Of a stretch of DNA of 39,190 nt, positions 4,668-36,895 are shown piece after piece. Made by a program: the position numbers and the translations under genes. The notes below the pieces were generated by a model, which was not told the origin of the DNA, made no database searches, and was given only the letters and a program-made list of their open reading frames with translations. This DNA comes from a bacterium (GTDB taxonomy: Bacteria; T1Sed10-126; CAZEBV01), in assembly GCA_042219765.1 (NCBI GenBank), contig JBDGPI010000040.1:53567-92756 (forward strand), given 5' to 3'. Position 1 is the stretch's first letter. Each line of letters starts with the position of its first letter.

Positions 4668-5135
4668 TCAGCCCTCCTGTGGATCCTTCGTCGATAAAAC
4701 CTCAGACGTACACTGCGGGCATCGAGTGGCTTTGGCGGGTATCTGGCTAAGACAATAAGGGCACTCCTGAGTGGACGAAACAGTTTTGACGGATTCCGGG
4801 TCCTGACCGAGTCGAAGTTGATTTATTTTACGGATTACGACGAATAAGATACTCGCAATGATCAGGAAGTTGATAAGGGTGTTTATAAATATGCCGTAAT
4901 TAATCGTAGGTACCCCCGCCGATTGAGCTGCCTGTAACGTCTCGTAGCTGCCCGAGGACAAATTGATGTACATATTTGAAAAATCAACCTTGCCCAGTAC
5001 CAATCCGAGTGGAGGCATTAAGATGTCCTTCACCAACGAATTGATAACGCTGGTAAAAGCCGTTCCAATAATGATTCCTACGGCCATGTCAATTACGTTT
5101 CCCTTAATCGCAAATTTCTTGAACTCCTCCAGCAT
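4668..5135 (-). CDS. mscL: Large-conductance mechanosensitive channel MscL with a C-terminal CxxC...CxxC extension
   Basis: MLEEFKKFAIKGNVIDMAVGIIIGTAFTSVINSLVKDILMPPLG is the canonical MscL N-terminus and TM1. ATG at 5135 is preceded by GGAGGTG with a 6-nt spacer, so the listed GTG at 5144 is probably not the start. The C-terminus carries CPYCLSQIPAKATRCPQC. Confidence 0.9.
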   Translation of the reverse strand: MLEEFKKFAIKGNVIDMAVGIIIGTAFTSVINSLVKDILMPPLGLVLGKVDFSNMYINLSSGSYETLQAAQSAGVPTINYGIFINTLINFLIIASILFVVIRKINQLRLGQDPESVKTVSSTQECPYCLSQIPAKATRCPQCTSEVLSTKDPQEG

Positions 5136-5207
5136 AACAGTCACCTCCGAGGTTGTATTTTACTCCTGAATTCATCCTTGAAGCTTTCCTGGTAAACCTA
5201 AATTACC

Positions 5208-19814: not shown

Positions 19815-20299
19815 CTCTGACTCCCTTAGAGCGGATCGGTTCCCGGATCAGGAACCCACTCTGTTCCCTCGGATTTCCCCTGTAAACAAGTACGAGCCAG
19901 CAAATTTAAACGGCTGAACTATTAGTCGTTCGATACGACCAGGGAACCGTTAGTGAATGGTTCCGTTCACATGATACCAGTGTAAAAACCCCTATAAAAA
20001 GCCCTGTTCGGGGTATCTGACAACTGATAAATGATAACTTAGGGATCAAGTTAATCCTACCGAAGGACATCGACGCACCCCCCTTCAAAAAAAGACTATC
20101 GATAAATTCAGACGCATGTTTATCCGGACGGACCGAACCCCACGCTTTCCCGGGAGGAAACTCACTCATACCTCCGGAGGTAAACTGACGTCGTCCGGAG
20201 GGAAGTAACGAACCTCAAGTTTTTATCCATTGACTTTTACCCGACCAACCCAGCCGGACAGGTCAACACGAAAAAACCCCCCCGATTATAGTTGAATAA

Positions 20300-20323
20300 T
20301 TGATCAATTGTTCAATTGATCAA
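20300..20323. repeat. Perfect 11-bp inverted repeat TTGATCAATTG-tt-CAATTGATCAA (two copies of the palindrome TTGATCAA, each containing GATC). Candidate operator.
   Basis: Read directly from the sequence. The arms are 20300..20310 and 20313..20323. It lies in the 860-nt divergent intergenic region between the PAS kinase gene and the MBL-hydrolase gene, and is preceded by an A6C7 tract (20271..20283). Confidence 0.6.
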
Positions 20324-20675
20324 ATGTCAGTTTTTTCGATGCTCTACCCTTCGATTCGTGGAGGATCTTATTTCGGCAAGATGTATTTGTTGGCGAGCAA
20401 ATTATTTCTACGGTCCCGAGATTGGATGTTATTGGGTCCAGACTTACCCCCGGAAATTACCAAACCCTTGCCACCGGTCCAGATGGGAGCACTCCAGAAC
20501 CATCCGTGGTGAATCCCCACGGATACGTTCCGCAAGTCGAACCTCTAATCCAAATTTTCCACTCGGTCTCCGACGGAGACCCGTCCAAAAAATTATGCCT
20601 ATCCGGAGTTTGTAGGATACAATTCTAAAACTCACCGATTACATCCTGTAACAACTATTTCTATCTTGGGACTGT

Positions 20676-24093: not shown

Positions 24094-26022
24094 TTACAGT
24101 CCCCAGAAATACTGAATGCCAAGTGACGTCACAACCGTCAATAGGATCTGAAGGGGGGCACCGGCAATGGCGTAGTCCCGGAACTTGTACCCCCCTGGAC
24201 CCATAACCATCAGGTTCGTCTGGTAGCCAACGGGAGACATAAATGCCGTACTGGCGGCAAACGTTACTGCCAGTACGAAGGAAAATGGATTCAGACCCAG
24301 CTGCTGAGCCGCGTCCACGGCAACCGGAATCATTAGCACCACGCTTGCGTTATTACTGATGATGTTCGTCAGAACAGCGGTCATTAAGTAAAACATTCCC
24401 AGCATCGCCACGGCGGGGAGAAACGAATCGCCAAGTTTAATCACCTGCTGGGCAAGCCACTGAGCCGTCCCGGTCTGCTGCATGGATGTGCCCAGTGGAA
24501 TCAACCCTGCCAGTAAGAAAATTACCTCCCAGTCGATCGCTTCGTATATTTCATTCGGTCGCACACAACCCGTACTCACCATACCAAGCACCCCGGCAAT
24601 GGCTGCCGGAATAATATCCAGGAGGCCAAACGCTACCGCACCTATAAAGGCAAGCAATATTCCCAGTGCCACGGGCATGAGTGATCGACGGAAATCGCCT
24701 GCGTCAAGTTTTTTCGAAACGATAAAGTTCGAGTTATTACGCAGGCGTTCTTCGGTTCGTTCCGTTGACAGCAGAAGCAAGACGTCACCAGCCTGCAGCA
24801 CGAGATCCTTCATGCCGCTGTGGGTCAACTCCCCGCCACGGCGTATGGCAAGGACGGTGGCATCGTAACGGTCGAGGAAGTTGATGTCTTTAAGGGATTC
24901 ACCTTCCGCAAACGAACCCTGCGTAATCACTGTTTCAATTAGCACCTGCCCCTTCACCGGTTCCTCGAGTTGCTTCTGGGTAACTTCAATTTCAGGCAAA
25001 AATCGTAGTCCCTCCGTTTGAAGAACCCGCATGAGGGTCTCCCGGCTCGACTGAATGATCAGGTGATCACCCACCTCTATTTTTTGTTCCTCAAGGGGTT
25101 CCATAAATTGCTCGCCGTTGCGGACGACTTGCACAATTTCGAAATCAAGGGAGGAATCCTCCTGAATGTCACCGATCGTCTGACCGACAAAAGGGGATCC
25201 TTCTTCGACGACCACTTCCGTTAGAAAGTCGGCCATTTCGTATTCCTCGGTTATTTCTTCGTCAATGTCGATCCGTTCGGGAATAAGAAACCGGCCGACC
25301 GTTACCAGATAAATAAAGCCCGTGATCAGAACGATAATTCCCAGTTCGGTAAACTCGAACATGGAAAAAGGATGGTTCAGCAGTTTGCTCGATATTTCAC
25401 TGGCCAGAATATTGGTGGAAGTACCGATAAGCGTCAGGGTCCCTCCAAGCATCGATGCATAGGACAATGGGATCATGAGTTTGGAGGGGGACGTGCGAGC
25501 GGCACGGGCCAGTCGTGAGACCATAGGAATGAAAATCGCAACAACGGAAGTATTGTTGAGAAAACCCGCCACGGGACCGGTAAGACCGGATATCAAACTC
25601 AACTGACGGGTTTCTCCCCCCTTGAAGTACTTGGAAAGCATGTCCCCCAGCAACTGGATGGCCCCGGTACGCCGCACGGCATCACTAACAACATACAGTA
25701 AAAGGACTGTTATCGTGGCCGTGCTCGAAAATCCGGAAAGCCCTTCCTCTCGAGAAATCATTGTCCAGGGTTCCAGCACCATCAGAGTGAATGGTATTGA
25801 AAGCGAAATTAAATCCAGTCGGATTGGTTCCCAGATAAAAAGGCACATGTAGCCAAAAATTAGTCCAAGTAAAACTCCCATTTTTGGGGTGAAACTTACT
25901 TTATCGGGCATGGTTCCCCCTTCCACGGCTTTAGCGTACACTTCCGCCCCCAGGGGCAGGACGGCGAGTAAAATTGAGAATATCAACAGCAACGTTGTTC
26001 GCTTCAGCGCACGGTCCCACAT
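24094..26022 (-). CDS. SLC13/DASS-family anion permease with two central TrkA-C (RCK C-terminal) domains
   Basis: Two multi-helix hydrophobic halves flank a soluble ~200-aa insert with a duplicated pattern (VVEEGSPFVGQTIGDI...GDHLIIQSS and VITQGSFAEGESLKDI...GDVLLLLST), typical of TrkA-C pairs. ATG at 26022. Confidence 0.85.
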   Translation of the reverse strand: MWDRALKRTTLLLIFSILLAVLPLGAEVYAKAVEGGTMPDKVSFTPKMGVLLGLIFGYMCLFIWEPIRLDLISLSIPFTLMVLEPWTMISREEGLSGFSSTATITVLLLYVVSDAVRRTGAIQLLGDMLSKYFKGGETRQLSLISGLTGPVAGFLNNTSVVAIFIPMVSRLARAARTSPSKLMIPLSYASMLGGTLTLIGTSTNILASEISSKLLNHPFSMFEFTELGIIVLITGFIYLVTVGRFLIPERIDIDEEITEEYEMADFLTEVVVEEGSPFVGQTIGDIQEDSSLDFEIVQVVRNGEQFMEPLEEQKIEVGDHLIIQSSRETLMRVLQTEGLRFLPEIEVTQKQLEEPVKGQVLIETVITQGSFAEGESLKDINFLDRYDATVLAIRRGGELTHSGMKDLVLQAGDVLLLLSTERTEERLRNNSNFIVSKKLDAGDFRRSLMPVALGILLAFIGAVAFGLLDIIPAAIAGVLGMVSTGCVRPNEIYEAIDWEVIFLLAGLIPLGTSMQQTGTAQWLAQQVIKLGDSFLPAVAMLGMFYLMTAVLTNIISNNASVVLMIPVAVDAAQQLGLNPFSFVLAVTFAASTAFMSPVGYQTNLMVMGPGGYKFRDYAIAGAPLQILLTVVTSLGIQYFWGL

Positions 26023-28507: not shown

Positions 28508-30496
28508 TTAACGGACTGAGCCGATGGGGGTTCCATCGGGTGTAGGCTGATCCCGCCAGGGATAGTTCATCCAGGGAAAAACCTCGCATTGACTCAGTGA
28601 GTTATACCGTTCACGGTCGAAATGACCCACGTACGTAGCCATAGCCCGGTAGACGACACAACGTTGGCGTTGATTGGCCAACCGGTCATCCTCCTCGACT
28701 ACCTGGAGGAGTTTTTCTGGATCATAAGTTTCTGAACCGACCCGAATTCCTCCGTCGGTGGGAGAATCAAAAACAATGTACCGGGAATTTTTTGCAGTCC
28801 ACTGAGGCCAGGTCGGGAGTTTCATACCACTTTTGGTTGGGGATCCTGAACGGGCAAATTCAGCCCAGTACGATCGCATCTGCTTTGAGAGCTGCAGACG
28901 CCCGGTTCGATTGGCCTCGGTGAACAGAAAATCGGATGCCCCGCCCCCGAAACTAAAATCACCGAACACAAAGGGAATTTCAAAGCCGTGCGACGCCCCA
29001 AGAATTTTTGAAAGATCCGCCCCCATTAACGAAGGAAATTCATCCCAGTCAAATCGATAGCCGTAGACGGTAGAACCGGACTGACTTAAGACCGTTGCGG
29101 GTCGGTCAACCGCGTTTCCTTTCCATTGATTACTGCTGTACTCCGCAACCATATCGTAGAGATCCGGCTCTTTCAGTTGGGGAATGAGCCCCAGGAATCG
29201 GTCAACCCACGCCGGGTCCTGTGAGAGGAAAATTTTGGTTTCATCCCGGTTTGTTCCCGTTATCAGTGGTACGTTGTTGAAACTACCGGGATTCTTAAAA
29301 ACCTTGAGGGGGTCCGTTTCGGGCAGGACAACCCCGTCGGCAAATACCCGCGGCGGATCCATCGGCATACCGAGTTCACTGGCTTCAATGGCCCTCATCA
29401 AGTCTTTAGGGGGTTGTTTTTTCAGGTAAGACTCCGTGGAATCCGATCCCATTGATTCAAGTATTTTACGGGCTTCGGGAGCCGATTCTGCACGGCCATC
29501 CTCCTGCAGTAATCGGATTAGCACTTCACGGGAGCTGTTATTGTGTCCCCCGTTTTGCTCGTATTTTTCTCCAAGTGAGGGCTTGGTTGTCGCCAGAACG
29601 CCACTCTGAACGATTGCACGATCGAAGAGTCCCTCAGCAAGGGGTGAAAGCATCAAATTATAAACGTTACGTCCCCCGGCGGATTCACCAAATACTGTAA
29701 CGGTATTCGGATCCCCACCGAACGAAGCTATGTTCTCACGCACCCACTTCAGGGACTGTATTAAATCAAGAAGGGCAAAATTCCCGGAACGTTCTGCCGG
29801 TGATGTTCCAGGACCTCGTAGGGAGGGATGGCGGAACCAGCCAAGCGGACCCAGTCGATACTGCACCGCCACAACAATAACGTTCTGTTTACTGGCCAAC
29901 CGACTACCATCGTAGAGTTTAGTATGACCGATAACGTTTCCACCGCCGTGGATCCAGACCATAACCGGTAATTGTTCGTTACCGTCGGGAACCTGCTCCG
30001 GTTGGAAACTCGGGGCATAAACGTCCAGGTATAGACAGTCCTCCGAACCCACGGGCGTCCCCTGGTCCGCAGTTTGGACACCACCGAGTCTACTCGCCAG
30101 TTGAGGACAGGGATTTCCGTGTTTGGTCGCGGTAAGCGTATCGCTCCAGCCGGCCGGTGCTACCGGAGGCGCCCATCGGCGGTCATTAACAGGGGGTTTG
30201 GCGTACGGAATTCCGAGCCACTGATGACCGCCGTTCTCACCAGTCGCACCAATGACGGGTCCGTGTTTGAGTGATCGTTCGGTCCGGGGATTGGTTTCCA
30301 GAGGCTTGGATTCCCGACCACAACCTCCCAGAGCCAGGAAGGTCATCAATAGAACGAGTATCACAGTTATCTTAAGGATAAATTGCCGCTCTAAATCTGT
30401 TCTCAAGGTATCAACAGCCTGGAAGTTGCTCGATTTGCAACTTGTAAAGTTGTCTAAGCAAAATACAAACAACTCCACCATTGAAACAATTGCCAT
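28508..30496 (-). CDS. Type-B carboxylesterase/lipase (para-nitrobenzyl-esterase-like), probable lipoprotein
   Basis: LPVMVWIHGGG (oxyanion-hole region), VTVFGESAGG (GESAG nucleophile elbow), GASHGFEIPFVFG (catalytic His region). A signal-like KITVILVLLMTFLALGGCG has a lipobox-like LGGC. The true start is probably internal to the listed ORF (e.g. a TTG before RTDLERQF), and I could not resolve it. Confidence 0.85.
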   Translation of the reverse strand: MAIVSMVELFVFCLDNFTSCKSSNFQAVDTLRTDLERQFILKITVILVLLMTFLALGGCGRESKPLETNPRTERSLKHGPVIGATGENGGHQWLGIPYAKPPVNDRRWAPPVAPAGWSDTLTATKHGNPCPQLASRLGGVQTADQGTPVGSEDCLYLDVYAPSFQPEQVPDGNEQLPVMVWIHGGGNVIGHTKLYDGSRLASKQNVIVVAVQYRLGPLGWFRHPSLRGPGTSPAERSGNFALLDLIQSLKWVRENIASFGGDPNTVTVFGESAGGRNVYNLMLSPLAEGLFDRAIVQSGVLATTKPSLGEKYEQNGGHNNSSREVLIRLLQEDGRAESAPEARKILESMGSDSTESYLKKQPPKDLMRAIEASELGMPMDPPRVFADGVVLPETDPLKVFKNPGSFNNVPLITGTNRDETKIFLSQDPAWVDRFLGLIPQLKEPDLYDMVAEYSSNQWKGNAVDRPATVLSQSGSTVYGYRFDWDEFPSLMGADLSKILGASHGFEIPFVFGDFSFGGGASDFLFTEANRTGRLQLSKQMRSYWAEFARSGSPTKSGMKLPTWPQWTAKNSRYIVFDSPTDGGIRVGSETYDPEKLLQVVEEDDRLANQRQRCVVYRAMATYVGHFDRERYNSLSQCEVFPWMNYPWRDQPTPDGTPIGSVR

Positions 30497-30581: not shown

Positions 30582-30953
30582 TCACCCGAACCTGGTCTCA
30601 AGAAATTCGACAATATCGTCGGATTCGTACATCCACTCCGTGCCGTCGTCACGGTCAATCCTCAAGCATGGTACCTGGACCATGCCACCTCCCTGCTCGA
30701 GTTGTTTACGGTAAGTAGAATTCTCCTTGATATTCCGGTACTCGAGCGGAAGGTTCAGCTTGTGCGCCGACCGGCGCACTTTCACACAGAACGGTCATCC
30801 ATCAAAGTGGTAGAGCGACATTTTTTCCAACTCGTCTTCGATCACTTCCTGTTCATCGGGGGACCGCTGCATTGGGGTTGGACGGGTGAGCCAATCAATC
30901 CAGATAATAATCCAACCCAGAAATTTCCGTATTGGTGCCATCACATACTGCAT
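30582..30953 (-). CDS. Glutaredoxin-like (GST_N-type) protein with an N-terminal hydrophobic tether. The in-frame TGA at 30795..30797 is read as selenocysteine (U-P-F-C redox motif).
   Basis: Hand translation of the minus strand gives MQYVMAPIRKFLGWIIIWIDWLTRPTPMQRSPDEQEVIEDELEKMSLYHFDG-TGA-PFCVKVRRSAHKLNLPLEYRNIKENSTYRKQLEQGGGMVQVPCLRIDRDDGTEWMYESDDIVEFLETRFG. The only interruption is the TGA at the first Cys position of CPFC. The frame is closed upstream by TAA at 30975..30977. A SECIS-like hairpin starts 15 nt downstream of the TGA. The start may instead be ATG 30941. The ORF track lists only the 3' fragment, 30582..30785. Confidence 0.75.
30762..30779 (-). promoter_or_regulatory. Bacterial SECIS-like recoding hairpin (mRNA sense: GUGCGCC-GGUC-GGCGCAC)
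   Basis: A perfect 7-bp G/C-rich stem with a 4-nt GGUC loop begins 15 nt 3' of the in-frame UGA. GGUC is the apical loop of the E. coli fdhF SECIS that SelB contacts. Flanking GUUC (just after UGA) and GAAC (after the hairpin) could form a lower stem. Confidence 0.6.
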
Positions 30954-31479
30954 CGAAATCACGTCTCCAGTGAATTAAATTTCGGCTACTGTGAAATAAA
31001 ACCGGATGGATCTACCCAGGTTGAGTCCGCGTTTCACTGGTGGAAGGGCTGCGACTATTAAGGTGTTACTATTGTAACTAACATCTCCGAAGAATTTACC
31101 CCTGGCTAATCCAGAGATCACTGGTAGAGAAATACGATTTTTCATGATTGAGGTCACATTATTTAACGTTAGTTACTCAAAACTGATTCAACTCCAGGGA
31201 TGTAATAGATGGGGAATTTTTCGATGTAGAAGATCTCAAAATATTACGGGATTTTAAAATGCGATCGTAAAATCAGTCTACTGGACTCCTTCGCTCTAAA
31301 AGTACGGATGGAAGTCGATGCCGATGTGTTAAAACTTTCACCTGTACAGAAGAACCCCTCCTAAGTTCAACCATGAATAAGAGAGATGACCTACCAGAAC
31401 CCGAAAATAAGAGTAATCGACTAATCACTAAATTTGTGTCGGATCTACTTAGCAACCAATAACTCAGGACAAATCCTGA

Positions 31480-32904
31480 TTAAAGCTCGAAAAATTGACC
31501 GTGGAAACCGAGGGGTATGACATGAGGGACGACGGCCCGGCCTATTTCCTCAAAGGTCGAGGCGTCAAGTACCAGCAGAAAAGAGTGTTCCTGTTCGGCA
31601 TCGATTATTACGGAAAGTATCACTCCGTCGTCCTCGGCGGTGGCATCGGGTGACTCGAGGAAAACCGGTTCACCCGGGTAGACGTCGTCCTCCGACCAGG
31701 TCCGGGTCGATCCATCATTGACGTTCACTTTAATTAGTTTCCCCAGAAAGGAATCCGACGTCTGCCCCACCCCGTAAACATAATTGTAGTCCTCTCCGCC
31801 GTAGCTTCCGTAATTAAATCGAGGTAGTTCGATAAATTCATCAAGTAGAACGTCCCTGGATATTGATTCATCGTTCATATCCACGCTGACACGACTCAGT
31901 TCCGGGGAAGACGGATTGTAGCCCTCGGAGCGAATATCCTCGAGGTAGAAGTCGTGGATGATGTCGGCGTCCGGGTAAGTTACAAGGTCAATATTTACCC
32001 TGCCATTCTGTTCGAACGCATTTACATGGTGAAATGAGAAGAAAGCCTCTTCGGTCGATGGACGTGCAATCACCTCACCGGAATCCTTGTCGAGTATGGT
32101 AAATCGGGTCCCCTTCTCGGGTTTCCACTCAAAAGCTTTGATGATTGGATCATTACCGATGGCCACGTCAAACGGGTCTAATACCAGTGGGAATTCCGCA
32201 AGTACTACGTAGTTTTCGGTCATTCCAAAACTGTGCATGTACGCGGGCTCATCCGTCGGAATCGAATTAATAACATCACGCTCACCCGTCTCGTTATCGA
32301 TCTGAAAATACTTGTACCGGTGCCTGAAGGAGAATTCCGTTATGTAGCTAATCGTTGCGCCTCGTTCGGAGTCGAAGTGAGGATGAGCGGTTGTCAGATG
32401 CCCGTCAACTCCCAGACCGTCCTTGATCTCGAGAGTATCCAGCGTTTCCGGATCGAACTCAACCGGGATTGGAGTTTCGGTTAGAGCCAAATACTCGTCG
32501 GCTATCTCGGCCACGTTCACGACGGCGTTGTCCGTCGGATCAGGAGGTTTGAAGTACGTGAAAAACTGCTCGAAGATATCTCGACAGGGGTCGGTCCCAA
32601 ATTCTTTGTATTTCATTTCACCTTCACGGGCATGCTTGTAGGCATCGCTTTCAAGAAACTTATTCTGATAGCTGACATCTCCGTTCCGGAGAGTGAACAG
32701 ATGTAGCATGGCGTACCCATCGAAAAGGTGATTAAGCTGTCGATCCCCCACCTCAAATTTCGCCGGGGTATTTCGGAATAGTGAACCGTCAATCCAATCA
32801 GGAATCCGACCTTTCACGGTTAAATCATCGATAGACCGTTCCTCTTCCAGGCTCTGAATTATGACCGAACGCTTATCCGCTCTGGTGTTTCGATCGTCGG
32901 ACAC
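31480..32904 (-). CDS. Carotenoid/apocarotenoid cleavage oxygenase (RPE65/CCO family)
   Basis: The four conserved iron-ligand His contexts are present: TTAHPHFD, YMHSFGMTENYVV, FFSFHHVNAFE, PLGFHGQFF. The GTG start at 32904 is preceded by GGGAGG with a 9-nt spacer. Confidence 0.9.
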   Translation of the reverse strand: MSDDRNTRADKRSVIIQSLEEERSIDDLTVKGRIPDWIDGSLFRNTPAKFEVGDRQLNHLFDGYAMLHLFTLRNGDVSYQNKFLESDAYKHAREGEMKYKEFGTDPCRDIFEQFFTYFKPPDPTDNAVVNVAEIADEYLALTETPIPVEFDPETLDTLEIKDGLGVDGHLTTAHPHFDSERGATISYITEFSFRHRYKYFQIDNETGERDVINSIPTDEPAYMHSFGMTENYVVLAEFPLVLDPFDVAIGNDPIIKAFEWKPEKGTRFTILDKDSGEVIARPSTEEAFFSFHHVNAFEQNGRVNIDLVTYPDADIIHDFYLEDIRSEGYNPSSPELSRVSVDMNDESISRDVLLDEFIELPRFNYGSYGGEDYNYVYGVGQTSDSFLGKLIKVNVNDGSTRTWSEDDVYPGEPVFLESPDATAEDDGVILSVIIDAEQEHSFLLVLDASTFEEIGRAVVPHVIPLGFHGQFFEL

Positions 32905-33223: not shown

Positions 33224-34927
33224 TTAGGATAATTTATCAAGGTACTCCATGCTTTTTTGATCGTAACTAAGTTGGGTTAGCTGACAGGCAGTCGGTAGTT
33301 CACCGTAGTCGAACCAGGTGTAGGCGCAGACTTCGCAGGTATCGATTAAAACTCCGGTGTCCCCCCTGAAATTCTTGAGTAGGAATTCGTTCCCACAATC
33401 CGGGCAGTTACCGTCCAGTTCGGCCGTCCGACCGGTTTCCTGCGCCGGGTTGATGCCTTCAATGTACTTCTCATTTAAATCCTCCTTTTTTTCGTTCGTC
33501 AAAGCCGTTTCAAACCGACACGTAATTTTGAAAAGATCGTCCTGTTTGAGGCCAACCCCCCCACAAATGAAGCACTCGTCCAGTTGTACCCCAAGCCAAG
33601 TACGATCCGTTAGGGGCCCATTACAATTTGGACAGGACTGCTCGAATCCCCCTCCCTCCTCCTTTCGCATTTGAAGGAGGTCTTGAAACAACGGAATCGA
33701 CTCCATCGGTCTGAACTCTTCACCGTCGGCCAGACCAATTTGCGTTTGGGGATCCATTATTCCGGGCTCCATCAACCGGGAGAATCGTACGGGGCCCTCA
33801 GTTTTGTCGTCCACCTTGACGTGAAACTCCTCCTCGACGGCCGGACGGCCACTCTCGAATTCAACGCGGCGATGGGAGAACGGCTCGGTTGAGTCAAAAT
33901 CGACCTGGTTTTCGAGGGTTTCCATACTCTCAGCGGCCAGATCGAGCAAACGGTTCAAGCGCAGGTCAAGTGGGGGGTGGTTCTCGAACCAGCCACTGGA
34001 GTCACCGTTGCCGGAACCGTCTTTTTCTAACTTTCCCGGATCTACCGGGACAACCTGAAGCGCCTCGTAGGTTTGCTTTTTAAGCCGGGGACTCGATTGG
34101 TAATGGTGAACGCGTGAAGGATTGTACTTGTAGTAAAACCCCAGTTTATAGAGGGTTCGGGCAAGTGCGATCGGATTTCGATTGTACTCGACCGCTCGTG
34201 CGTCCGCTCGTGTCTCCTGGGTCCGGGAGACGGTGGTTCTTAGCAAACGCCCGATGATTGTGTAGACGGTGGCCAGGGCTACAACCATGATCCCGTCCGT
34301 CGAGACTTCACCTGATCCGAGACCATAAGTCGAGCCATATCGTGTTTGACCGCCGTCCACGTCCACCACGTTTACGTCGGGTTCGGCTACTCCAGTGATA
34401 CTCTCAATGGTGCTCATGATATTTTCCATAAAAGTTTTGATCCGGGTATCACCGTAAGCGACGTGCGCCGCCTCGTGTGCTACGACTCCCTGAAGTTCAC
34501 TTCGCTCAAGACACCCAATGGTTCCTTCCGTGAGAATAATCGCACACTGGTTTCGGTCCTCCAGAGAAAGGGCAGTCCGATACTCGGAGGAAATGACGTA
34601 TCCGTCAAAGTCCTTTCCTCCGGCGGCAATCTCGAGTTCGTCAATAATGTTCCGAAACAGCTGGTGGTATCGATCACCGGAATCAATCGGTTTGGCATCA
34701 AGCTTCTTAAGTTCTCGATCAATCGAGCGAAAGTAAGCTATCAGGAAGTGTCCGACGGCGAGCACCGTTCCAAAGAGCAGGAAATACGAAGTGAGAAAAG
34801 TGAAAAACCCTCCGAACTGGTGCTCAAAAGCAATGTATACAACAATCGACAGGAGCCAAAAAAAGCTCACGTACATAAGAACGAGAGCAACCAGAAAAAA
34901 AAGGAGCCTCTTTCTCGGTGGGATCAT
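33224..34927 (-). CDS. Membrane M48-family zinc metalloprotease with a C-terminal GYF_2-like segment and two zinc-ribbon modules
   Basis: N-terminal TM helices, then VVAHEAAHVAYGD (HExxH) and a downstream QETRADARAVEY. The C-terminus has CPNCNGPL...CFICGG and CPDCGNEF...CEVCAYTWFDYGEL, which resemble TFIIB-type zinc fingers. I prefer ATG 34927 (MIPPRKRLLFFLVALVL...). The ORF is open up to a TTG at 34975. Confidence 0.8.
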   Translation of the reverse strand: MIPPRKRLLFFLVALVLMYVSFFWLLSIVVYIAFEHQFGGFFTFLTSYFLLFGTVLAVGHFLIAYFRSIDRELKKLDAKPIDSGDRYHQLFRNIIDELEIAAGGKDFDGYVISSEYRTALSLEDRNQCAIILTEGTIGCLERSELQGVVAHEAAHVAYGDTRIKTFMENIMSTIESITGVAEPDVNVVDVDGGQTRYGSTYGLGSGEVSTDGIMVVALATVYTIIGRLLRTTVSRTQETRADARAVEYNRNPIALARTLYKLGFYYKYNPSRVHHYQSSPRLKKQTYEALQVVPVDPGKLEKDGSGNGDSSGWFENHPPLDLRLNRLLDLAAESMETLENQVDFDSTEPFSHRRVEFESGRPAVEEEFHVKVDDKTEGPVRFSRLMEPGIMDPQTQIGLADGEEFRPMESIPLFQDLLQMRKEEGGGFEQSCPNCNGPLTDRTWLGVQLDECFICGGVGLKQDDLFKITCRFETALTNEKKEDLNEKYIEGINPAQETGRTAELDGNCPDCGNEFLLKNFRGDTGVLIDTCEVCAYTWFDYGELPTACQLTQLSYDQKSMEYLDKLS

Positions 34928-35447
34928 CAATCTCGAAATAGTCCCGTTGCCGAAAATCACCAAATGGAACGACAAAATTGTAGGGGATTTTCTCCGTGGT
35001 CTGATTTAATTGCATCACCGAGTCATTGTAGTGCTGGCGGGCGTAACTGATACGGTTTTCGGTTGACGTCAATTCTTCCTGCAATTCCCGAAAATTCTCG
35101 TCGGCCTGTAACTGAGGGTAATTCTCGGAAACCGCAAATAACGACCGGAGTGAATCGGTAAGCATGTTCTCCGCTTCCGCCTGTTTCTGGAGGTTCTCCG
35201 TGTCTACCTCAACGGCCTGCTGCCGCGCTCTGGTTACGGCTTCAAACGTTTCCTGTTCGTGTTCGGCGTATCCCTGAACAGTTTCCACAAGATTCGGTAT
35301 CAGGTCGTGCCGGCGCTTTAATTGAACCTCGATCTGACTCAGCGCATTGTCGACTCGATTTTTTAAATTCACAAGACGATTGTACAGGTATACAAAAAGT
35401 CCGAGTAAAACCAATAATCCAGTCATTAACATGCTGGTCGTACTCAC
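34824..35447 (-). CDS. lemA: LemA family protein
   Basis: YNRLVNLKNRVDNALSQIEVQLKRRHDLIPNLVETVQGYAEHEQETFEAVTRAR and SENYPQLQADENFRELQEEL are hallmark LemA sequences after a single N-terminal TM. GTG 35447 is preceded by GGTGG with a 6-nt spacer. The ORF is open to a TTG at 35504, and an ATG lies at 35432. The 3' end overlaps the M48 gene out of frame. Confidence 0.85.
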   Translation of the reverse strand: MSTTSMLMTGLLVLLGLFVYLYNRLVNLKNRVDNALSQIEVQLKRRHDLIPNLVETVQGYAEHEQETFEAVTRARQQAVEVDTENLQKQAEAENMLTDSLRSLFAVSENYPQLQADENFRELQEELTSTENRISYARQHYNDSVMQLNQTTEKIPYNFVVPFGDFRQRDYFEIDDPTEKEAPFFSGCSRSYVRELFLAPVDCCIHCF

Positions 35448-35826
35448 GAGCAACCACCGGAGAAAAAATCCGTTATTATTAGTAGATGTATTAAAGACAA
35501 ACAAAATAGTTCTTCATCAAAATATTATTAATACCAAAAAGTAAAAATCAACGAAGTCCACACCGTCAACCGAAATCAGGTACGATCGAATTATTTTTTA
35601 TTTCGAAGACATGGGTAAAGGGGTGTTAAAGGGTTTTCTTCTATAAAAATCCTTGAAGACAGTTACGAACAGTAAACCAAAGCTTATCGGGAGGACCAGG
35701 AAGTGGATCTGCCATTCGGTAAATTTTAAAGGTCAGCTGTTTTAAGCCAAAAAAAGATCGGGCGTCAAAACGCAGTATTCATGTTCATGCACAAACCGGC
35801 TCCATCAGTGAGGATTGGGATTGCAA

Positions 35827-36276
35827 TCAATTAACCAGTAAGACAAGAAACCATACCCACAGGACACCCCGCGCAGTCCAGGCCACAGTTCGGATCCAGT
35901 TACTCCTTAGCAAGAATTGATGTGTGGATTCGCTGTAGCCCTGATTCAATCTTTCGTGAGCGGGTCGTTGAAGAAAGTACGTGGAGAAGAGATTAACCAG
36001 GACCAGTAAGAAGCCTGCTATCCATAGCCTCCCGGACCCAAATCCGGGGGGATGATAGGCAAGAAATCCGGCAGTCAACGCCTCTGCGATCATTGGTAAA
36101 GCAACCACGGACGTCGTCCGAACCATATGGTTTTTCTGGTAGTGCTCGTAATTATCCTCCGGGACAATACCGTGCAGAGGATAATGGACTACCTGCACGA
36201 ACCAGATCAGACCGACCATGAACCACGTCGATAGTAGGTTCATTATCCATGCTGTCCGTACTATGACGTCACTCAA
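35827..36276 (-). CDS. Hypothetical 4-TM membrane protein (possibly DUF1772-like)
   Basis: Four hydrophobic segments, including a WFVQVVHYPL motif that I associate loosely with DUF1772-type membrane proteins. TTG start, with an ATG alternative 11 codons in. Confidence 0.5.
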   Translation of the reverse strand: MSDVIVRTAWIMNLLSTWFMVGLIWFVQVVHYPLHGIVPEDNYEHYQKNHMVRTTSVVALPMIAEALTAGFLAYHPPGFGSGRLWIAGFLLVLVNLFSTYFLQRPAHERLNQGYSESTHQFLLRSNWIRTVAWTARGVLWVWFLVLLVN

Positions 36277-36379
36277 ACATCGTCACCCCGGAATTGAAGT
36301 TTTTACTATCAAGCACTAAGATACAGTGTCAATCCGACATCGAGAGAAGATCGTATTTCTCTAACAGGATTGTAAAACC

Positions 36380-36817
36380 GTGACTGCTTCTTCCTCGACA
36401 AGCTCGCTTCAATCAAAATGGATGTTCTGGACCCTTATGATCGCCGCCGTTTACAACGGACTATGGGGACTGTTCATAATACTGTTTCCGGAGGCACTTT
36501 TCGACTGGTCTGGGATCAGCCCACCACTTTATCCCGAGATCTGGCAATGCGTGGGGATGATCGTTGGGGTTTACAGCATCGGTTATGCCATCGCGGCCAA
36601 CCGCCCGCTCGTCCACTGGCCCATCGTGCTCGTGGGATTACTGGGTAAGGTCTTTGGCCCGATCGGTTTTATCAGTGCCTGGTTGGAGGGGACGTTCAAC
36701 CCCCGGTTCGGTCTGACCATTCTTACCAACGACCTTATCTGGTGGATTCCATTTTCACTCATTCTGCTTCGAGCCTATCAGGCAGACTACGACCAACACG
36801 CGAAAAGCCAGGTTTAA
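36380..36817 (+). CDS. Hypothetical integral membrane protein
   Basis: A 145-codon ORF with four Trp/Gly-rich hydrophobic segments (WMFWTLMIAAVYNGLWGLFIILF, WQCVGMIVGVYSIGYAIA, IVLVGLLGKVFGPIGFI, LIWWIPFSLILL). No family recognised. It is divergent from the preceding membrane-protein gene. Confidence 0.5.
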   Translation: MTASSSTSSLQSKWMFWTLMIAAVYNGLWGLFIILFPEALFDWSGISPPLYPEIWQCVGMIVGVYSIGYAIAANRPLVHWPIVLVGLLGKVFGPIGFISAWLEGTFNPRFGLTILTNDLIWWIPFSLILLRAYQADYDQHAKSQV

Positions 36818-36895
36818 CGTCGTAGCAATGGATTCTTGGATTAATCCCGGAAAAGTGGATTATGACTTCAATGATCGAAGGACGTCAGCGCACCG

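Follow-up and report, generated by a model that had tools for sequence, protein, structure and literature searches.

The window analysed here, a stretch of 39,190 nucleotides of a bacterial contig (JBDGPI010000040.1, positions 53,567 to 92,756 of the forward strand), carries on its minus strand a small glutaredoxin-like gene whose reading frame is crossed by an in-frame TGA, and it is the decoding of this TGA as selenocysteine (Sec, U), previously proposed by a sequence-only reading of the same DNA, that is evaluated below. The frame opens after a TAA (30977..30975), extends over 59 sense codons up to the TGA (30797..30795), continues as PFCVKVRRSAH... and ends at a stop TGA (30584..30582). 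ATG codons are found at 30953 and 30941, and translation from the ATG at 30953, a choice that agrees with the N-termini of three relatives introduced below (L001, L003, and L004), gives a product of 123 amino acids (aa). In the list of open reading frames (ORFs), the locus is split in two, one piece of 67 aa with a GTG start (30582..30785) and, upstream of it, one of 55 aa (30795..30962), and the 67-aa product of the split gene is an entry in the protein collection. Re-translation reproduced the coordinates, the frame and the 123-aa product that had been proposed, together with the 85-nt gap to a downstream carboxylesterase ORF (28508..30496, Pfam COesterase).

When U is replaced by C, the product is matched in Pfam by GST_N_3 (51.4 bits for a cut-off of 22), Glutaredoxin (45.5 bits for 22.9), and GST_N_2 (41.8 bits for 25), and its best sequence match among solved structures is to the N-domains of glutaredoxin 2 (Grx2), with which it aligns at the CPFC motif, at V-P in the cis-proline loop and at E-S in the glutathione site. 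The family that the sequence-only reading had described, with a length of about 120 aa, an N-terminal hydrophobic helix and the layout CPFCVK.RR...GGG..VPCLRI...WMYES, turned out to be real and large: a profile search collects 6567 proteins at E <= 1e-8, typically of 119-135 aa, which are annotated as 'glutaredoxin family protein' or 'GST N-terminal domain-containing protein' and many of which come from marine Gammaproteobacteria. At the position of this TGA, about 110 full-length homologues have the first Cys of CPFC, and so do the solved Grx2 structures and 43 genomic loci, in which the codon reads TGT or TGC. Homologues were expected to align across the TGA if the gene were intact, and this is borne out by the more than 100 full-length Cys forms with CPFC at that place as well as by four independent TGA forms.

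The latter emerged from the homology search, in which four truncated proteins of 67-69 aa come closest to the C-terminal half (68-81% identity), while the full-length Cys forms reach at most 61% identity to the window protein. On the metagenome contigs of these truncated relatives (L001, L002, L003, and L004, the last being the same as L005), an ORF of 52 codons is followed by an in-frame TGA, each time in the context G-TGA-PFCVKVRRSAH. The set of five TGA forms used below thus consists of the window and L001-L004, and stems from at least four samples in all, at least three of them beyond that of the window. The other four forms share 62-72% protein identity with the window protein, the five are mutually 62-86% identical, and their alignment contains no indels. 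Their synonymous sites are saturated, the proportion of synonymous differences (pS) ranging from 0.52 to 0.92, and nonsynonymous divergence relative to synonymous (dN/dS) stays low, at about 0.08-0.25 before the TGA and 0.05-0.18 after it. Purifying selection therefore acts on both halves of the gene, and the combination of saturated pS with low dN/dS on both sides, in five forms, excludes a pseudogene, a strain-specific nonsense mutation or a sequencing error. A pattern scan of metagenomes with TGA-PFCVKVRR yielded six loci, of which L063 is the contig of L005, L064-L066 are chance matches outside the family, and L061 and L062 are degraded genes of this family. In L061 (4215-4240, minus strand), the TGA stands at the first Cys of CPFC and the frame is lost after GGG; in L062 (356-381, minus strand; 28% GC), the same TGA lies in a frame that has several stops upstream and lacks a start codon; the hairpin described hereafter is missing from both. 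The two look like decaying copies, L062 possibly belonging to an organism with a different genetic code. A search of viral contigs gave no match, and a profile search with the five TGA forms returned no further TGA form among the best 120 matches listed, all of which are full-length Cys forms.

The second line of evidence comes from the mRNA just downstream. Fifteen nucleotides after the TGA lies a perfect 7-bp hairpin, GTGCGCC-GGTC-GGCGCAC, which occurs only once in the window. Among the 1537 TGA trinucleotides on both strands of the window, scanned for a perfect stem of at least 7 bp with a loop of 3-9 nt located 16-37 nt after the TGA and carrying a G in its first two positions, a single hairpin qualifies, namely this one, which stands behind the codon-53 TGA and, at the same time, behind an out-of-frame TGA 7 nt further upstream. 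The association of the hairpin with the TGA is not due to chance. The 21 nucleotides AAA GTG CGC CGG TCG GCG CAC are identical in all five TGA forms, and when only invariant residues with four- or sixfold degenerate codons are considered, none of the five codons inside the hairpin varies, compared to 22 of the 25 outside (Fisher p = 3.9e-4). This codon invariance therefore reflects a constraint on the RNA rather than on the peptide alone; in the spacer between TGA and hairpin, synonymous changes are tolerated among the relatives (CCG/CCC, TGT/TGC, GTG/GTA/GTC). Conversely, the 43 Cys-form loci have TGT or TGC at the codon, and the corresponding 18 nt reach at best -5.6 kcal/mol on folding, as against -12.7 kcal/mol in the TGA forms, so that the hairpin is present in 5/5 TGA forms and absent in 43/43 Cys forms. 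The hairpin is thereby tied to the UGA at the RNA level.

In terms of architecture, the hairpin agrees at every point with the criteria for a bacterial Sec insertion sequence (bSECIS; SECIS for the element in general) as quoted in PMC13188914: an apical loop of 3-9 nt (here 4 nt, GGUC), an upper stem of 4-16 bp (7 bp), at least one G in the first two loop positions (both), a distance of 16-37 nt between UGA and loop (22 nt), and a minimum free energy of at most -7.5 kcal/mol (-12.7 kcal/mol). The sequence-only reading had expected an element kept in relatives with TGA and lacking in those with TGC or TGT, and the nucleotide identity in all TGA forms, the absence from all Cys forms examined and the agreement with the bSECIS model are in line with that expectation.

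The claim that the GGUC loop equals that of the SECIS of E. coli fdhF was also verified on the fdhF sequence itself, which, checked against 5419 genomes, has a GGUC loop starting 18 nt after the UGA. In the SelB-SECIS structures, SelB makes its contacts with the loop's G and U. Both elements combine an in-frame UGA with a short G+C-rich hairpin, but the loop starts 22 nt after the UGA in the window, the 7-bp stem is perfect, and the stem sequences are unrelated.

Taken together, the five TGA forms, the purifying selection and the TGA-linked hairpin support Sec insertion rather than a pseudogene, as had been suggested, and make it very likely, on comparative grounds, that 30953..30582 of the minus strand is an intact gene in which UGA is decoded as Sec at codon 53.

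A number of observations nevertheless weigh against Sec decoding at this locus. The folding energy of the 66-nt region is ordinary in comparison with dinucleotide shuffles (z = 0.12), and the significance of the hairpin thus derives from its position and conservation, not from its energy. RNAalifold detects no covariation, the upper stem being invariant, and the proposed lower stem is only partly kept; no Rfam model matches the hairpin at gathering or permissive thresholds, and the bulged U of the E. coli fdhF element is lacking. Within the 39-kb window, selA, selB, selD, and the tRNA-Sec gene were not found, and scans for ORFs and extensions requiring TGA read-through gave no second selenoprotein candidate. 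Finally, the 55 relatives retrieved from GTDB representative genomes are all Cys forms, with no TGA form among them.

The alternative that these points serve best is read-through of the UGA without Sec, in which the hairpin would slow the ribosome or hinder release factor 2 (RF2) while the UGA is decoded by a suppressor or by a near-cognate tRNA for Trp or Cys, giving a protein with W-P-F-C or C-P-F-C. It can be argued in its favor that the Sec machinery is missing from the window and that a conserved hairpin proves only some UGA-linked function at the RNA level. Yet the UGA falls exactly on the catalytic Cys, the classic position of Cys/Sec pairs, and the hairpin fits the SelB-type bSECIS model with a loop identical to that of fdhF. 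Besides, a TGY codon, as used by more than 6000 relatives, would be a simpler way of encoding Cys, whereas Trp in place of the nucleophile would inactivate an enzyme whose gene is under purifying selection. We therefore regard read-through of this kind as improbable.

It is still less probable that the locus consists of two small genes, a hydrophobic peptide of 52-55 aa that ends at the TGA and a 67-aa protein starting at the GTG at 30785, with the hairpin acting as an attenuator, an RNA-stability element or a palindromic operator. Although both ORFs possess start codons and the hairpin DNA is nearly palindromic, such a split would cut the thioredoxin fold between beta-1 and alpha-1 and remove the active site, the called downstream start varies among relatives (MKVRR versus MRRSAH), the full-length single-chain Cys forms are collinear without indels, and the hairpin vanishes exactly where TGA becomes TGT. 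The splitting of the locus by gene callers into fragments of 55 and 67 aa, as well as the degraded appearance of L061 and L062, which also have TGA at the codon, could alternatively be taken to indicate a pseudogene, a strain-specific nonsense mutation or a sequencing or assembly error, with a coincidental hairpin. This view, to which we give very little credence, is refuted by the five aligned TGA forms under purifying selection, in which the same TGA is kept despite saturated synonymous sites, without frameshifts or extra stops, and with dN/dS far below 1 on both sides; L061 and L062, with their broken frames and no hairpin, illustrate what real decay looks like. As to a genome-wide reassignment of TGA to sense (code 4 or 25), only the in-frame TGA itself speaks for it, while 7/23 large ORFs in the window, this gene included, end in TGA, code 11 leaves the long ORFs intact, and read-through of a TGA is required in no other ORF of the window. 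The organism of the window uses TGA as an ordinary stop, and this usage refutes reassignment, whose probability we judge to be negligible. A tRNA scan found no tRNA in the window.

If UGA is decoded as Sec at codon 53, the process could be pictured as follows. As the ribosome nears the UGA, the 7-bp hairpin would fold in the mRNA 15 nt downstream and present its GGUC loop about 22 nt from the UGA; SelB, loaded with Sec-tRNA(Sec) as well as GTP, would bind this loop and place Sec in the A site in competition with RF2. The product would be a thiol/selenol oxidoreductase with U-P-F-C at the N-terminus of helix alpha-1, in which Sec would act as the attacking nucleophile and Cys56 would resolve the selenenylsulfide. 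Turnover may proceed with glutathione or a related thiol, as suggested by the conserved cis-Pro (VP) and Glu-Ser (YESDDI) motifs, and the N-terminal hydrophobic helix would probably keep the enzyme at the membrane. SelB binding, selenium incorporation, glutathione dependence and membrane association are inferred. The positions of the elements involved are collected in Table 1.

Table 1. Elements of the putative selenoprotein gene in the window, with the loci of two Cys-form relatives
Feature	Position	Strand	Detail or basis
Putative selenoprotein coding sequence, glutaredoxin/GST-N-like, U = residue 53	30953..30582	minus	123 codons + stop
TGA at codon 53, first position of the U-P-F-C redox motif	30797..30795	minus	aligned to first Cys of CPFC
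Spacer between UGA and hairpin, 15 nt (CCG UUC UGU GUG AAA)	30794..30780	minus	read from sequence
Codon TGT of the resolving Cys, inside the spacer	30788..30786	minus	read from sequence
Putative SECIS upper hairpin, codes V-R-R-S-A-H	30779..30762	minus	-12.7 kcal/mol fold, conservation, bSECIS criteria
Hairpin 5' arm GUGCGCC	30779..30773	minus	
Hairpin loop GGUC	30772..30769	minus	
Hairpin 3' arm GGCGCAC	30768..30762	minus	
N-terminal hydrophobic helix, residues 2-23 (...PIRKFLGWIIIWIDWLTRP), possible membrane-association segment	30950..30885	minus	AlphaFold2 model of Cys homologue P0005
Third Cys codon, C96, V-P-C-L motif, adjoins predicted cis-proline	30668..30666	minus	invariant in 42 aligned members
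True stop of the gene, also TGA, without downstream SECIS-type hairpin	30584..30582	minus	
P0002 locus	L067:5889-6272		
P0004 locus	L068:1055-1438		

The fold was modelled on a Cys homologue, P0005, which is 61% identical to the window protein. The AlphaFold2 model of P0005 has a mean predicted local distance difference test score (pLDDT) of 89.5 and starts with two helices, at residues 2-23 (pLDDT 71-85) and 32-42, followed by a thioredoxin/glutaredoxin fold made of strands (E) and helices (H) in the order E45-49, H54-65 (with C53PFC56), E71-74, H79-87, E96-101, E104-108, and H111-122. This beta-alpha-beta-alpha-beta-beta-alpha arrangement, which has a cis-Pro loop and CxxC at the start of helix 1, retrieves GST N-domains and glutaredoxins in Foldseek. 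The protein had been called 'tethered' by the sequence-only reading, and the N-terminal helix on which this term relied is indeed predicted in the P0005 model; the helix has a hydrophobic core of about 12 residues only and its best 19-residue Kyte-Doolittle window scores 1.27, below the usual transmembrane threshold of 1.6, so that membrane tethering is plausible rather than established. The third Cys, C96, recurs without exception in the aligned members of the family, and ordinary glutaredoxins and GSTs are not known to have a Cys at the equivalent position; it could serve as a second resolving thiol, or as a metal or Fe-S ligand. The idea of a glutathione-dependent turnover is based on the alignment of the VP and ES motifs with those of Grx2.

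Two Cys forms, P0002 and P0004, shed light on the history of the Sec form. Their identity to L003 and L004, 78-81%, exceeds that between L004 and the window protein (62%). In neighbor-joining (NJ) trees, they group with L003 and L004 in 99% of the bootstraps, while a clade uniting the five TGA forms without P0002 and P0004 is obtained in only 0.5%. In both genes, the codon is TGT and the hairpin region reads GTT CGG CGG GCG GCG CAT, with a folding energy of -3.7 kcal/mol. The four substitutions within these 18 nt, namely three synonymous changes and one from Ser to Ala, have abolished the hairpin. Since the identical 18-nt hairpin is found in both groups of TGA forms, an ancestral Sec form is the simplest history, in which at least one reversion to Cys would have occurred and the SECIS would then have decayed, as far as a simple distance tree can tell.

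Among known systems, the Sec-containing glutaredoxins (PF00462, UxxC) come first, and for one of them, the Grx of Clostridium oremlandii, the selenoprotein nature has been demonstrated experimentally (Kim et al. 2011, cited in PMC13188914). The window protein shares with these proteins, including those from the Sargasso Sea and Global Ocean Sampling (GOS) surveys, the thioredoxin/glutaredoxin fold, the use of Sec for the N-terminal nucleophilic Cys of CxxC, and a bacterial SECIS hairpin in the coding region just after the UGA. It differs from them by its best scores on GST_N_3 and the Grx2 N-domain, by an N-terminal hydrophobic helix and a second helix ahead of the fold, and by the signature GGGxxxVPCLRI...EWMYESDDI with its third invariant Cys. 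In the survey supplements, the motif of the Sargasso Sec-Grx reads ...HuTSC..., that of the GOS Sec-Grx ...TTUPFCIKAKQ...TSVP..., and that of the Sargasso Sec-GST ...TuPWV...; the strings PFCVK, WMYES, VPCLRI, and MYES/LYES do not occur in the Sargasso or GOS supplements, one GOS file being truncated and this absence therefore not conclusive. The GST-like selenoproteins of the same surveys (COG0625, PF13409) belong to the Pfam clan of the GST N-domain and also carry Sec where the catalytic residue is expected, near the start of helix alpha-1. Their motif, uPWV, contains no resolving Cys and they are presumably full-length two-domain proteins, whereas the window protein is a stand-alone N-domain of 123 aa with a dithiol-type UPFC motif. 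Both groups are established families, in agreement with the statement of the sequence-only reading that surveys had already reported Sec-containing Grx-like proteins.

With E. coli glutaredoxin 2 (GrxB; PDB 1G7O, 3IR4, 4KX4), the window protein has in common the CPFC/CPYC motif, the cis-Pro (VP) and the Glu-Ser motif of the glutathione site, but Grx2 is a cytosolic Cys protein of 215 aa with two domains, the C-terminal helical one of which is lacking here. Assignment as a GrxB orthologue was rejected, the scores being 44.1 versus 133 bits for NF007702 and 31.6 versus 186.65 bits for TIGR02182, with profile positions 1-71 only being matched. The Uxx-star selenoproteins (NF041212/NF041114) are small Grx-like bacterial selenoproteins as well, whose name points to a Sec located three residues from the C-terminus. 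Membership in this group was likewise rejected, with 21.1 versus 66 bits (NF041212) and 19.3 versus 72 bits (NF041114), and with Sec at residue 53 of 123. More generally, no NCBIfam selenoprotein model covers the window protein, and a literature search found no membrane-anchored glutaredoxins. The helix-bearing UPFC subfamily is absent from the lists checked, and, within a kind of selenoprotein that is already known, it probably represents a new subfamily bearing Sec. Going one step further, we lean, by a modest degree, towards an uncatalogued subfamily defined by a solitary GST-N/Grx2-like domain that follows a hydrophobic N-terminal helix and carries UPFC and an invariant third Cys in VPCL. 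This subfamily would belong to uncultured, apparently halophilic bacteria, and Sec would be ancestral in it, at least one lineage (P0002 and P0004) having reverted to Cys and its SECIS having decayed. If true, this would provide a natural Sec/Cys enzyme pair of about 80% identity and a minimal perfect-stem GGUC SECIS for heterologous Sec insertion.

As for the genomic context, no conserved operon partner was found, the neighbors being different in every locus (window, L001, L002, and the Cys forms). In the window, the gene is flanked by the carboxylesterase gene and by that of an RPE65-type carotenoid oxygenase (31480-32904); a cytochrome P450 gene (1435-2343) is the neighbor in L001 and a DUF4440 gene in L002, while a heme oxygenase gene (PF01126) lies about 95 nt downstream of the P0002 and P0004 genes, at L067:6369-6980 in the P0002 locus. 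These neighbors are not orthologous to each other, but O2-dependent oxygenases recur among them, which hints, speculatively, at an aerobic, oxidative-stress context.

The proteome of the window is acidic, D+E amounting to 15.4% and K+R to 9.8% over its 23 large ORFs, and nine proteins of the window are all singletons at 90% identity. A transporter of the SLC13 type (24094-26022) has its nearest named homologues, at 50-60% identity, in Halanaerobiales and haloarchaea. The acidic proteome and the SLC13 matches suggest a hypersaline habitat and a poorly sampled lineage, the SLC13 matches being indicative of habitat, not of lineage.

Elsewhere in the window, the translations contain what reads as a protein of GGDEF type and as a signal sequence resembling that of lipoproteins; along with the location of the putative SECIS in a coding region, these speak for a bacterial origin. 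The ORF at 4668-5144, likewise read from its translation, looks like an MscL-type channel with an extra C-terminal CPYC...CPQC tail resembling a zinc ribbon. Two regions, of about 0.9 kb (19815-20675) and 1.9 kb (34976-36895), contain no long ORF under code 11, except for a possible 226-aa ORF (34824-35504) and a membrane-protein-like ORF near 35644-36315, and Rfam gave no hits in 19815-20675 or 34976-36895.

With respect to the biology, the decoding mechanism invoked is one already known in bacteria, and the understanding of Sec decoding and of glutaredoxins is left unchanged by this gene. The locus is now called as two fragments where one selenoprotein annotation fits, and the gene predicts selenium use in this poorly sampled, apparently halophilic lineage. 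It would give a Sec member to a very large family of Grx/GST-N-like proteins without assigned function (more than 6500 proteins), which otherwise consists almost entirely of Cys forms. Within this family, P0002 and P0004 illustrate the loss of the SECIS after the change from UGA to UGY, and may thereby offer a matched pair with which the contribution of Sec to catalysis could be measured.

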